Origin: Candidatus Aenigmatarchaeota archaeon
GTDB lineage: Archaea; Aenigmatarchaeota; Aenigmatarchaeia; CG10238-14; SCSR01
Assembly (NCBI GenBank): GCA_014238095.1
Contig: JABABT010000006.1
Location: 1-47,695, forward strand
DNA: 47,695 nucleotides
Reading direction: 5' to 3'
Shown here: in pieces, positions 2,316 to 5,850 of the stretch
Layout of the letters: each line of letters opens with the position of its first letter
How positions within the stretch are numbered: the stretch's first letter is position 1
The notes under the pieces: model-generated
Databases searched by the model: none
Told to the model about the DNA's origin: nothing
Seen by the model: only the letters and a program-made list of their open reading frames with translations
Translations under genes and position numbers: made by a program

Positions 2316-4640
2316 ATGCAAGAACCTAAATTGAAAGAAAATAGATGGAATCATAAACTAGAAAAAGATATATTAGAAAAATGGAATGAAGAATCTAATA
2401 TTTATAAATTTGACGAAAATGCAGATGAAATTTTTATAATGGATACTCCTCCACCATATCCTAGTGGAAGACCTTGGCATATAGGAGCAGCTGCTCATTA
2501 TTCTCAAATAGATATGATAGCAAGATCTCAAAGAATGATGGGTAAAAGTGTTATGTTTCCTATTGGTATTGATAGAAATGGTATAGGAGTAGAAAATTAT
2601 ACTGAAAAGAAATGTGGAGTTAGTATACATACAACTTCACGTGAAAATTTTTTAAAATTATGTAAAGAAACATTCAATGAATTGGAAGATGAAATGATAA
2701 CTATAATGAAACATCTTGGTTTATCTTGTGATTTTAAAAATTATTATAGAACAGATTCAGATGAATATAGAGCTTTAACACAATCTACTTTCATTAATCT
2801 TTGGAAAAATAATTTAATTTACGAAGATACTAGACCTAATAATTTTTGTGTAAAATGTGGAACAACAATAGCAGATGCAGAAGTTTTGTATGATGAAATA
2901 TCAACAGATTTAGTTTATATGAAATTCAAAACAGAAGAAGATGAAAATATAATTGTAGCATCAACTAGACCAGAATTACTTGGAGCATGTCAAATAATTA
3001 TTGTAAATCCAAAAGACAAAAAAAATAGTAAATTTATTGGAAAGAATGTTATAATTCCATTATTTAATAGAAAAGTTAAAGTTATTTCTCATCCACAAGC
3101 TAAAATAGAATTTGGATCTGGTGTAGCAATGATTTGTAGTTATGGAGATTTTTCTGATGTAAGATTATTTCGTGAATTAAAATTAAAAGAAATTGTTATG
3201 ATAGATAAAAGAGGTAAGTTAACAGATAAAGCTTGTAATTATAATGGTCTTTCTGTTAAAATTGCTAGAGAAAAAATAATTGAAGATTTAGAAAAATCAG
3301 AACTTATAATTAAAAAAGAAAAAATAATTCATAGAACACCAATTTGTGAAAGAAGTAAAAATCCTATTGAAATTATTCCAATGAAAGAATATTATTTGAA
3401 ACAATTAAATTCTATTGAAAAAATAAGAGAAGCAACTAATAAATTAAAAATGTATCCTAAAAATTCAAAACAAATTCTTTTAGATTGGATAAATTCAATT
3501 TCTATTGATTGGCCAATATCAAGAAGAAGATTTTATGCAACAGAAATTCCAATTTGGTATTGTAAAAAATGTAATGAACCACATATTCCAAAACCTGGTA
3601 AATATTATAGACCATGGAAAGATAATTCACCTTTTGAAAAATGTAACAAATGTAATTCAAATGAGTTAATTGGAGAAACAAGAACATTTGATACTTGGAT
3701 GGATTCAAGTATTAGTGCATTAGCTATTTCAAAATTAAGAAATAATGAAAAATTATTTGAAAAAACATATCCTACATCTATACGTACACAAGGTAAAGAT
3801 ATTATAAGAACTTGGTTATATTATTCAATGCTTAGATGTGAACAAATAACTAAAAAAATACCATGGGATTCTGCTTGGATAATGGGTTATGTTGTTGATG
3901 AAAAAGGTAAGAAAATGAGTAAAAGTAAAGGAAATGTTGTAGACCCAATACCTATATTAGATAACTATGGATCAGATAATTTTAGATTTTGGAGTGCTGC
4001 TGAAGCAGGTCTTGGTTCTGATTTTAGATTTTCTGAAGATAAATTACGTGGATCAAGTAAATTTATGACAAAATTATGGAATATTGCAAGATTTGTTTCT
4101 TCATTTCCACAACCATCAAAACCAAATTTAACAAATACTGATAAATGGATTTTAAATAGTCTTGAAAAATTAATTTTAGTATCTAAAGAAGCCTATAAAG
4201 AATATAATTTTTTCATACCAGCAAATAAAATTCGTGAATTTGTATGGAATATATTTGCTGATCATTATATTGAAATGATTAAAACACGTGCTTATGGAGA
4301 AGGAAATTTTAATAAAGAAGAAATAGAATCTGCACATTATACTCTTCATGAAGTTTTAAGAAAAATTTTACAATTAATTGCACCAATAACACCTTTTATT
4401 ACAGATTATGTTTATAGAAATCTGTATGAATCTAAAGTTCATAATTCAAAATTTGAAAATATAATTAATATAGAAGATGTTTCTGATATAACAAATAATA
4501 TAATTGAATTTAATTCTAATGTTTGGAATGAAAAAAAATCAAAAGGAATTTCTTTAAGAGATGAAATTAGTTTTCAAATTCCAGAAAATTTAAAAAGCTA
4601 TGAAAAAGATTTAATTATAATGCATAAATTAATTAAGTGA
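2316..4640 (+). CDS. valS: Valyl-tRNA synthetase
   Basis: DTPPPYPSG..HIGA (HIGH variant), DWPISR, FDTWMDS, QGKDIIRTW and KMSKS motifs; archaeal length. Confidence 0.93.
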   Translation: MQEPKLKENRWNHKLEKDILEKWNEESNIYKFDENADEIFIMDTPPPYPSGRPWHIGAAAHYSQIDMIARSQRMMGKSVMFPIGIDRNGIGVENYTEKKCGVSIHTTSRENFLKLCKETFNELEDEMITIMKHLGLSCDFKNYYRTDSDEYRALTQSTFINLWKNNLIYEDTRPNNFCVKCGTTIADAEVLYDEISTDLVYMKFKTEEDENIIVASTRPELLGACQIIIVNPKDKKNSKFIGKNVIIPLFNRKVKVISHPQAKIEFGSGVAMICSYGDFSDVRLFRELKLKEIVMIDKRGKLTDKACNYNGLSVKIAREKIIEDLEKSELIIKKEKIIHRTPICERSKNPIEIIPMKEYYLKQLNSIEKIREATNKLKMYPKNSKQILLDWINSISIDWPISRRRFYATEIPIWYCKKCNEPHIPKPGKYYRPWKDNSPFEKCNKCNSNELIGETRTFDTWMDSSISALAISKLRNNEKLFEKTYPTSIRTQGKDIIRTWLYYSMLRCEQITKKIPWDSAWIMGYVVDEKGKKMSKSKGNVVDPIPILDNYGSDNFRFWSAAEAGLGSDFRFSEDKLRGSSKFMTKLWNIARFVSSFPQPSKPNLTNTDKWILNSLEKLILVSKEAYKEYNFFIPANKIREFVWNIFADHYIEMIKTRAYGEGNFNKEEIESAHYTLHEVLRKILQLIAPITPFITDYVYRNLYESKVHNSKFENIINIEDVSDITNNIIEFNSNVWNEKKSKGISLRDEISFQIPENLKSYEKDLIIMHKLIK

Positions 4641-4644
4641 TATT

Positions 4645-5850
4645 ATGATTACACAAGAAACCTTTACATTAAAAAAAATGATAAAAGAATTAGAATCTAT
4701 AAAAGGTAGACATACAGAATTAGTTTCAGTTTTTGTTTCTGCTGGATCTAATCTTCAAGATTCAATTGATCAGGTAAAAAATGAACAATCAACTGCAAAT
4801 AATATAAAATCTAAAGCTAATAGGAAAAATGTTGTTGATGCATTAGAAAAAATTATACAACATTTAAGAACTTTTAGAAAAACTCCAAAAAATGGTTTAG
4901 TAGTTTTTTCTGGAAATGTTTCTGAAAATGAAGGTAAAACAAATATAAAATTATGGAGTATGGAACCTCCAATAGAATTAAAAAAGAAAGTTTATTGGTG
5001 TGACCAAGTTTTTATTTTAGATCCACTTTATGAAATGGTAAAAGAAAAAGAAATATATGGATTAATTGTTATGGATTCAAAAGAAGCAGATATAGGATTT
5101 TTAACAGGTAAAAGAATAGAGTCTGTATTACATTTTGATTCAGCTGTACCAGGAAAAACAACAAAAGGAGGATATTCACAAATGAGATATCAACATGTAA
5201 GAGAAGCATTGTTAAATGATTTTATGAAGAAAATAGGAGAAAATGCTTCAAAAATTTTTATGAAAGAAAAAAATCTTAAAGGAGTTATTGTTGGTGGTCC
5301 TGGACCAAATAAAGAAATTTTTATGAAAGGAGAACATTTAACAGATATGGTAAAGAGAAAGGTTCTTGGAATAAAAGATGTTAGTTATACAGGTGAATAT
5401 GGTTTAGAAGAATTAGTTAATAGATCAGAAGATTTATTAAAAGAAGCAAGTCTTTTACATGAAAAAGAATTATTAGAAAAATTTTTTGAAAATTTAAGAA
5501 AAGATGGAAATGTTGTTTATGGTCTTGAAAATACAAAAAAAGTTCTTGAAATTGGTGCAGTAGATTCTTTACTTATTTCTGAAAATTTTGAATTATGGCA
5601 TGCAACATTAAGATGTCAAACAGGTCATGATAAAATAACTGATTTAATTGAATTTGATTTAGATAAACAAAAATGTGAAATATGTAACACTAATATGAAT
5701 TTAATAGATAAGAAAGAAGTTGTTGAAATTATTACAGAAAAAACACTTGAATTTGGTGGTGTTGTTGAGCTAATATCAGTAGATACTAGACAAGGAAAAC
5801 AATTTGAAAAGATAGGTGGTGTTGGAGCCTTACTTAGGTATAAAGTTTAA
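4645..5850 (+). CDS. prf1: Peptide chain release factor aRF1 with a non-canonical GGY motif
   Basis: GRHTELVS, NIKS, YWCDQVF (YxCxxxF), three-domain layout, C-terminal GGVGALLRY. The GGQ site reads GGYSQ. Confidence 0.93.
   Translation: MITQETFTLKKMIKELESIKGRHTELVSVFVSAGSNLQDSIDQVKNEQSTANNIKSKANRKNVVDALEKIIQHLRTFRKTPKNGLVVFSGNVSENEGKTNIKLWSMEPPIELKKKVYWCDQVFILDPLYEMVKEKEIYGLIVMDSKEADIGFLTGKRIESVLHFDSAVPGKTTKGGYSQMRYQHVREALLNDFMKKIGENASKIFMKEKNLKGVIVGGPGPNKEIFMKGEHLTDMVKRKVLGIKDVSYTGEYGLEELVNRSEDLLKEASLLHEKELLEKFFENLRKDGNVVYGLENTKKVLEIGAVDSLLISENFELWHATLRCQTGHDKITDLIEFDLDKQKCEICNTNMNLIDKKEVVEIITEKTLEFGGVVELISVDTRQGKQFEKIGGVGALLRYKV

Follow-up and report, generated by a model that had tools for sequence, protein, structure and literature searches.

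An archaeal release factor 1 with GGY in place of GGQ, and its relatives in Aenigmatarchaeota

The stretch of DNA studied here, called the window, comprises positions 1 to 47,695 of the forward strand of contig JABABT010000006.1, from assembly GCA_014238095.1 of a Candidatus Aenigmatarchaeota archaeon. It carries an open reading frame (ORF) of 401 amino acids encoding an archaeal release factor 1 (aRF1), in which gga gga tat tca caa at positions 5167-5181 is translated as G175 G176 Y177 S178 Q179 (context VPGKTTKGGYSQMRYQHVRE). The loop therefore reads GGY and not the GGQ tripeptide that characterizes class-I release factors (RFs), a substitution that had been pointed out in a first-pass annotation made from the sequence by a model. 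The reading of the ORF and a phmmer search against all Protein Data Bank chains both confirmed it: in the alignments with the aRF1 chain 4af1_A (E 6.9e-75) and with human eRF1 (3j5y_A, E about 3e-58), the loop is ungapped and Y177 sits on the Gln of GGQ.

The identity of the protein is otherwise clear. It matched the equivalog hidden Markov model (HMM) TIGR03676 over residues 6-401 with 432.4 bits, for a cut-off of 234.7, and a Pfam scan found all three domains, eRF1_1 (46.7 bits), eRF1_2 (123.5 bits) and eRF1_3 (83.8 bits). The NIKS and YxCxxxF motifs are intact (Table 1), as annotated at first pass; NIKS is kept in most of the 120 best relatives, and Y117, C119 and F123 are invariant in our alignment A1. 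An AlphaFold2 (AF2) model built from 53 homologues reached a mean pLDDT (predicted local distance difference test) of 86, and its best structural matches in Foldseek were 4af1, with a template-modelling (TM) score of 0.80, and then the accommodated ribosome-bound eRF1 5lzu (TM 0.74). The loop of this model extends as far as residue 176 and is followed by a long predicted helix, 177-206, which would carry Q179 on its first turn. Since the loop carries GGY instead of GGQ, we classified the protein as an orthologous variant and not as a canonical member of the aRF1/eRF1 family.

Table 1. Features of the aRF1 gene in the window.
Feature	Position	Strand	Evidence or remark
aRF1 gene (401 aa + stop)	4645..5850	+	TIGR03676 aRF1_eRF1 432.4 bits, Pfam eRF1_1/2/3
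NIKS stop-codon recognition motif, residues 53-56	4801..4812	+	sequence reading
YxCxxxF motif, YWCDQVF, residues 117-123	4993..5013	+	sequence reading
M domain eRF1_2, residues 138-267, bears the catalytic loop	5056..5445	+	PF03464 123.5 bits; genome match at C7:5056-5445
Gly175-Gly176, surviving half of GGQ	5167..5172	+	GG in 182/182 non-Gln and 99/99 GGQ loops
Tyr177 codon TAT, at the place of the universal Gln	5173..5175	+	sequence reading and structure alignments
Ser178-Gln179	5176..5181	+	S178 is at +1 of the aRF1 intein site in relatives; Gln179 is a candidate shifted or helper Gln
C domain eRF1_3, residues 271-401	5455..5847	+	PF03465 83.8 bits
Cys/His mini-domain inserted in the aRF1 C domain, residues ~317-359	5593-5721	+	in several relatives the match is confined to residues 1-316 and 358-401

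The genome to which the window belongs (G000) comprises 516,096 bases on 39 contigs, with 24.3% G+C and an estimated completeness of 92.9%. Searches with the protein itself, PF03464 and the pelota model recovered a single gene of the eRF1 superfamily in this genome, the one in the window. The second, GGQ-type aRF1 that the first-pass annotation had suggested looking for was not found by these searches, nor was pelota/Dom34, and a search for the bacterial-type RF domain PF00472 was likewise negative. Relatives of family f4, unlike G000, do have a pelota of about 344 residues. The peptidyl-tRNA hydrolase Pth2 is present in G000, as it is in the archaeal control genomes of the same search. All three stop codons are in use, the 314 frames of 200 codons or more being closed by TAA (235), TGA (56) or TAG (23). 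Together with the finding of a single RF, this gives indirect support, at the level of sequence, to stop-codon-dependent peptidyl-tRNA hydrolysis by the protein.

That GGY might be a sequencing or assembly artefact, or belong to a pseudogene lying beside a canonical copy, is suggested by nothing except the metagenome-type assembly and a genome that is 93% complete. The frame is open along its full length (4645..5850), no second copy was recovered, and Tyr also occupies the position in both other genomes of the genus, encoded by TAC or TAT. The TAT codon differs from CAA and CAG at codon positions 1 and 3, hence the two changes noted at first pass, where a base-call error was considered unlikely. 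Read support was judged on Logan contigs. A 568-nucleotide contig (X2) from another public run, corresponding to window positions 4956-5523, showed 0 differences across the codon, although this run may be the source sample; X1, listed as containing all sampled words, had no piece spanning the TAT codon, and no RNA data set was listed. Stronger support for Tyr177 than that of X2 comes from conservation, since none of the 119 nearest relatives has Gln. GGY is neither a sequencing error nor a decaying copy, and we regard an artefact as practically negligible.

These relatives were the 120 best matches of the window protein in a collection of 5.8 billion proteins, of which 119 loops could be read, the remaining one containing an intein. 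They comprised GGMSQ (75), GGYSQ (17), GGFSQ (15), GGWSQ (6), GGMSA (4) and GGMSS (2), without any GGQ, and where source names were given they were Candidatus Aenigmatarchaeota. Farther away the picture changed: among the best 150 representatives of clusters at 50% identity, 132 loops were read, 23 non-Gln and 109 GGQ, the nearest representatives carrying GG(F/W/M) and the farther ones GGQ. We then considered 371 species-level genomes of the phylum, which form one class divided into families f1-f40; 337 of them matched a 101-residue piece spanning the loop, and the loop itself was read in 112. Sixty-six were non-Gln (GG followed by W, M, F or Y, mostly then S-Q) and 46 were GGQ. All 34 genomes read in the order of the window (f1-f7) are non-Gln, with M, W, Y or F; the others, all with W, belong to f18, f27, f34-f37, f39 and most of f38. 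GGQ was found in f8-f17, f19-f26, f28, f29, f31-f33 and f40, as well as in four genera of f38. At position 177, the 85 full-length genes of our first tree had the codons TGG (36), CAG (20), ATG (16), CAA (9), TAC (2), TAT (1) and TTT (1). The genus of the window has Tyr and its sister G024 has Trp (TGG), with a support of 99. The alignment across the lineage proposed at first pass thus revealed a lineage-wide change and not a copy decaying beside a canonical paralog. A distant aRF1-like protein from a JGI metagenome (P0266, 427 amino acids) carries Glu in place of the Gln (GGESQ) and groups with the GGQ proteins P0204 and P0246.

The loop was compared between 182 distinct intein-free non-Gln sequences and 99 GGQ sequences. 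K171, G175, G176, S178 and R181 are invariant in all 182 non-Gln loops, exactly as in the 99 GGQ loops, and residue 177 is M in 97, W in 47, Y in 20, F in 17 and E in 1. Two further positions differ with the state of the loop: Q179 is found in 168 of 182 non-Gln versus 19 of 99 GGQ loops, which mostly have Ala or Ser there, and Y182 in 155 of 182 versus 15 of 99. The non-Gln loop is still under selection.

Such conservation bears on the idea that the protein hydrolyses no peptidyl-tRNA and acts as a Pelota/Balon-like or stop-binding adaptor, the peptide being released by a host RF, by Pth2 after splitting or by another protein. The canonical catalytic residue is indeed missing, Pth2 is encoded in G000, and DPANN archaea live attached to hosts. 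However, neither the Gly-Gly pair nor the loop around it varies and no other RF was found in G000, which makes this explanation unlikely. Inactive relatives such as Dom34 and most baeRF-1 families, by comparison, are described as conserving the loop poorly (PMC6514570). NIKS and YxCxxxF are intact, the models of Pelota (TIGR00111, 78.7 versus 177.65 bits) and of Rv2629/Balon (NF052289, 32.7 versus 320 bits) remained below cut-off, and the predicted fold resembles aRF1/eRF1 (TM 0.80) much more than Balon (about 0.50). We consider an inactive factor very improbable.

A second line of evidence came from the methyltransferase Mtq2/HemK2, scored as present when the TIGR00537 match exceeded the cut-off of 87 bits. 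The best match in G000 reached 28 bits, Trm112 (PF03966) gave no match there, and the site offers no Gln for N5-methylation; both proteins had been proposed for a search at first pass. Throughout the phylum, Mtq2 was above cut-off in 127 of 371 genomes, and among those with a readable loop in 37 of 46 GGQ versus 1 of 66 non-Gln genomes. The lone non-Gln match (G039, 87.5 bits, in a 384-residue frame with partial coverage) is probably another methyltransferase. Family-wide counts of model matches at E <=1e-15 followed the same division: 4/69 in the non-Gln family f1, all below cut-off, 2/23 in f4, 0/19 in f5 and 0/3 in f2, versus 40/44 in f21, 7/7 in f12, 4/4 in f9 and 12/21 in f8, which are GGQ families. 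Non-Gln f27 gave 3/8, all near E 1e-17 and below cut-off. In the mixed family f38, a full-length Mtq2 above cut-off was restricted to G291, G292, G297 and G298. The last two were already known to be GGQ; G291 and G292 were predicted to be GGQ from the presence of Mtq2, and their loops proved to be so, each with an intein after the Gln.

The same association was found in a second phylum. An outlying representative with GGWSQ, P0192, derives from a metagenome-assembled genome labelled Candidatus Iainarchaeum, and aRF1 was matched in 17 of the 18 genomes that make up its Iainarchaeota order. Five have GGWSQ (all TGG) and no Mtq2 (0/5), and the 12 others have GGQ followed by S-A, S-S or S-K, with Mtq2 in nine. 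The W-type genes have flanks typical of Iainarchaeota (VPSKHTKGG ... ERLI) and P0192 falls outside the Aenigmatarchaeota clade on the tree, which shows that the change of Gln to Trp and that of Ala/Ser to Gln at +2 arose separately in the second phylum, again with loss of Mtq2. Taken together, these results strongly support the loss of Mtq2 together with the Gln in two phyla, and with it the early suggestion that this lineage may not need GGQ methylation.

Another account of this association is that the Gln side chain ceased to matter once Mtq2 was lost in slow-growing, reduced symbionts, its replacements being near-neutral. The genomes are tiny (0.4-1.3 Mb), some GGQ genomes are without Mtq2, and the side chain has been reported to be non-essential in vitro (PMC5799190, PMC6742477). 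Drift, however, would be expected to spread wider than the four hydrophobic residues that fill position 177 in 181 of 182 loops, and it sits poorly with the same combination of W and S-Q in two phyla and with the coupled changes at 179 and 182. We find relaxed constraint as the whole explanation rather improbable.

The number of switches was estimated on trees built after removing the loop columns. On a tree of 111 rows, Gln and non-Gln require at least two changes among the phylum loci, and seven when the outlying representatives are included; Q179 changes nine times. A focused tree of 63 rows, to which three intein-spliced f38 genes were added, placed two GGQ groups inside the Trp clade and the order of the window together with f27 nearer to the GGQ families, which requires at least four changes. 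A single clade of all non-Gln aRF1s of the phylum was rejected, at a cost of 57.5 log-likelihood units and an approximately unbiased (AU) test p of 0.008, for a group that had been named after seeing the tree. Parallel gains, reversals or gene transfer may each account for the switches within the phylum. The DNA flanks of the loop in W- and Q-type genes of both phyla showed no shared transferred segment, and thus gave no sign that the loop was spread by intein-mediated co-conversion or by horizontal transfer.

Inteins are frequent at this site. The aRF1 of many relatives (for instance at loci L036, L037 and L134-L136) is interrupted by an intein of about 412-504 residues, inserted precisely at the bond joining residue 177 to Ser178, the equivalent of window positions 5175/5176, with junctions of the form GGx/C...HN/S and, in some, an endonuclease-sized insert; the gene of the window has none. 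Escape from the intein through an altered codon was ruled out as a lasting immunity, since inteins adjoin Q, W, M and F alike. More speculatively, the intein may have helped to spread or select altered codons, through co-conversion during homing or through host escape from the endonuclease.

The reading that we favour, with a probability of about 0.6, is that the protein is the working class-I RF of the organism, an aRF1 orthologue in which the GGQ-S-A/S-x-R-F loop has been replaced by GG-(W/M/F/Y)-S-Q-x-R-Y, with a mechanism proposed as follows. The unchanged N domain would recognize stop codons in the usual way, and the Gly-Gly turn would still bring the loop into the peptidyl-transferase centre. 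There, the backbone amide of residue 177 would promote hydrolysis together with the ribosome itself, and the bulky hydrophobic side chain at 177 would assume the packing role of the Gln or methyl-Gln. In canonical factors, the Gln backbone amide is reported to catalyse hydrolysis (PMC6742477) and a packing role has been attributed to the side chain (PMC5799190). Gln179, on the first turn of the helix, would usually place its side-chain amide close to the site, much like the Gln of the GGxSQ loop in VLRF1-type proteins, and would be dispensable. With no Gln to methylate, Mtq2 would become useless and be lost; alternatively, Mtq2 may have been lost first and its loss may then have favoured a methylation-independent loop.

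The shift of the catalytic Gln proposed in the first-pass annotation can also be taken in a strict form: Gln179 would be the essential equivalent of the missing residue, the loop re-registering as in the GGxSQ hydrolases of the VLRF1 type, and residue 177 would be a mere spacer or anchor. A shift is plausible in view of the 168 non-Gln loops with Q179 and of the joint appearance of Trp177 and Gln179 in two phyla, the GGQ relatives in Iainarchaeota never having S-Q after GGQ. The annotation was also right that GG-x-SQ is typical of VLRF1-like factors, since the GGxSQ loop is stated for aVLRF-1 and acVLRF-1 by Burroughs and Aravind (2019, PMC6514570) and occurs in paralogs within the phylum as GGF/YSQ. 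Non-Gln aRF1s moreover scored 55-72 bits on the acVLRF1 model, on which the GGQ-type aRF1s of the phylum all stayed short of E 1e-14. Against an essential Gln179 stand the 14 of 182 non-Gln loops with Ala or Ser at this position (GGWSA, GGMSA, GGMSS), which contain no Gln at all and have arisen several times; in the genomes searched (G014, G023), such a Gln-free gene is the only full aRF1 match. Residue 177 is also limited to W, M, F and Y more tightly than a spacer needs, and the AF2 model puts Q179 on the first helical turn, off the tip of the loop. We therefore hold the strict form of the shift to be unlikely.

The paralogs are found in a few genomes of the phylum, as proteins of about 240-330 residues that match acVLRF1 (PF18859; 73-86 bits in the two that were scanned); those set against the VLRF1 clade have 229-248 residues and no NIKS domain match. 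None was found in G000. Among 22 database relatives of one of them, 21 loops were read: GGFSQ (10), GGYSQ (7), GGSSQ (2), GGSSA (1) and GGQSA (1). In the genomes, the paralog loops are GGQSA in f31, GGFSQ in f33 and GGSSS in f29.

Several points weigh against the working-factor reading as we have set it out. The 14 loops without Gln179 mean that a helper role of this residue cannot be general, and the 19 GGQ loops that also carry Q at +2 show that it is not peculiar to the variant. Nine of the 46 GGQ genomes of the phylum (G061, G068, G082, G163, G212, G226, G248, G359 and G302) and three of the 12 in the Iainarchaeota order have no Mtq2 match, so that the correlation is one-sided, and incompleteness confounds it in part. 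Nor are related genomes independent of one another, and the tree offers two independent contrasts, both in the expected direction, which carry no statistical power. The loops of paralog and aRF1 showed no consistent link: f33 combines a GGQ aRF1 with a GGFSQ paralog, both loop types thus occurring within one superfamily and even one cell, and f31 has GGQSA in both. Finally, all genomes are metagenome-assembled, and the proteins are known through sequences and models.

We also examined the 23S ribosomal RNA (rRNA), comparing the strands of the peptidyl-transferase centre with the state of the loop in 19 non-Gln genomes of the order of the window and seven GGQ genomes of f21, and in one GGW and five GGQ genomes of Iainarchaeota. 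No column tracked the state in both phyla, in what is a small sample. The 23S rRNA of G000 is complete (2404 bits) and lies outside the window, on contig C37:69365-72606 (L163); against the Rfam archaeal model, its domain V has 87 extra bases, inserted after model position 2572 or so. At about 4150-4330 of L163 and in the 23S loci L164-L211, the readable rRNAs depart from the Rfam archaeal consensus near the peptidyl-transferase centre. In GGQ and non-Gln lineages of the phylum alike, GGGGAUAAUGG replaces the consensus GGGAUAACaG and UCGCUGUCGG (UCGUUGUCGG in two) replaces UCGAUGUCgG. These deviating strands, which we take to be those of A2451/C2452 and A2503, are not linked to the Gln state. 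The 23S loci of several relatives (G006, G025, G027, G120, G011, G156 and G038) match a 281-base stretch of domain V in pieces lying hundreds of bases apart, which hints at introns or insertions at conserved sites of the rRNA.

Two other observations concern the gene itself. The mini-domain of the C domain shows a Cys-x4-His ... Cys-x2-Cys pattern and is lacking in several relatives; in alignment A1, C344 is invariant, and C324 and C347 are nearly so. Upstream, a valyl-tRNA synthetase gene (window 2316-4640) ends with a TGA stop four bases before the aRF1 start (4645), a gap that suggests co-transcription of the two genes.

In a broader sense, the Gln of GGQ may be chemically unneeded for termination in vivo. 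A methylation-independent GG-(aromatic/Met)-S-Q loop would have replaced GGQ in the sole canonical RF of two DPANN lineages, switching several times within Aenigmatarchaeota with Mtq2 gone each time, and the Gln would be kept elsewhere as part of a Gln-plus-methylation tuning system; to this wider proposal we give an even chance. GGQ is the textbook motif common to class-I RFs of all three domains of life, and the roles of its Gln side chain and methylation, whether in water coordination, packing or nucleophile selection, have been argued for more than 20 years, mostly through engineered mutants. A 2018 paper describes GGQ as universally conserved and Mtq2 orthologues as present in all archaea (PMC6144793), and our search of the full-text literature, which did not extend to supplements, found no description of a GGQ-lacking aRF1 variant in Aenigmatarchaeota or DPANN. 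If the proposal is true, whole lineages terminating without the Gln and its methyltransferase would represent a natural experiment, with natural knock-outs of the Gln-plus-methylation system, and annotation rules or classifiers that take the lack of GGQ as a sign of an inactive, Pelota-like or Balon-like protein would misjudge such RFs.

Compared with known systems, the protein is closest to canonical aRF1/eRF1 (4af1; Haloferax volcanii aRF1), which it resembles in HMM match, tree position, fold and three-domain architecture, as well as in NIKS, YxCxxxF, Gly-Gly, S178, R181 and the long helix after the loop. It differs from them in having Tyr (W, M or F in relatives) for Gln, a Gln for Ala/Ser at +2, and mostly RY for RF. 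Mtq2, which methylates the GGQ Gln in Haloferax volcanii (PMC6144793), is absent from G000. With the VLRF1 clade (aVLRF-1, acVLRF-1) it shares the GG-x-S-Q loop followed by xRF/Y, which GGYSQ matches. The members of this clade are proteins of the rescue type that do not have the complete aRF1 architecture, whereas the window protein has all three domains, and it scores only 32.3 bits on PF18859, versus 123.5 on eRF1_2, and 26.1 on NF041024, for a cut-off of 125. Pelota/Dom34 and Balon/Rv2629 have, like the window protein, an eRF1 fold and no catalytic Gln, but they have neither NIKS nor the conserved Gly-Gly loop, both of which are present here; for Balon/Rv2629, the absence of both NIKS and GGQ is given as a criterion (PMC13324472). 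The Pelota model covered residues 128-401 only and Pelota structures had TM scores of 0.5 or less to the AF2 model, while those of Balon were 16-17% identical. The last comparison is with laboratory mutants of the Gln in bacterial RF1/RF2 and in human eRF1 (Gln185), in which release is reported to be possible without the Gln side chain (PMC6742477, PMC5799190); according to the title of a 2000 paper by Seit-Nebi, human eRF1 retains activity when this Gln is mutated (cited in PMC1976462). Those mutants are engineered and impaired, whereas the state found in the window is natural and fixed across whole lineages in a sole RF, where positions +2 and +5 have changed in a coupled way and the methyltransferase has been lost.

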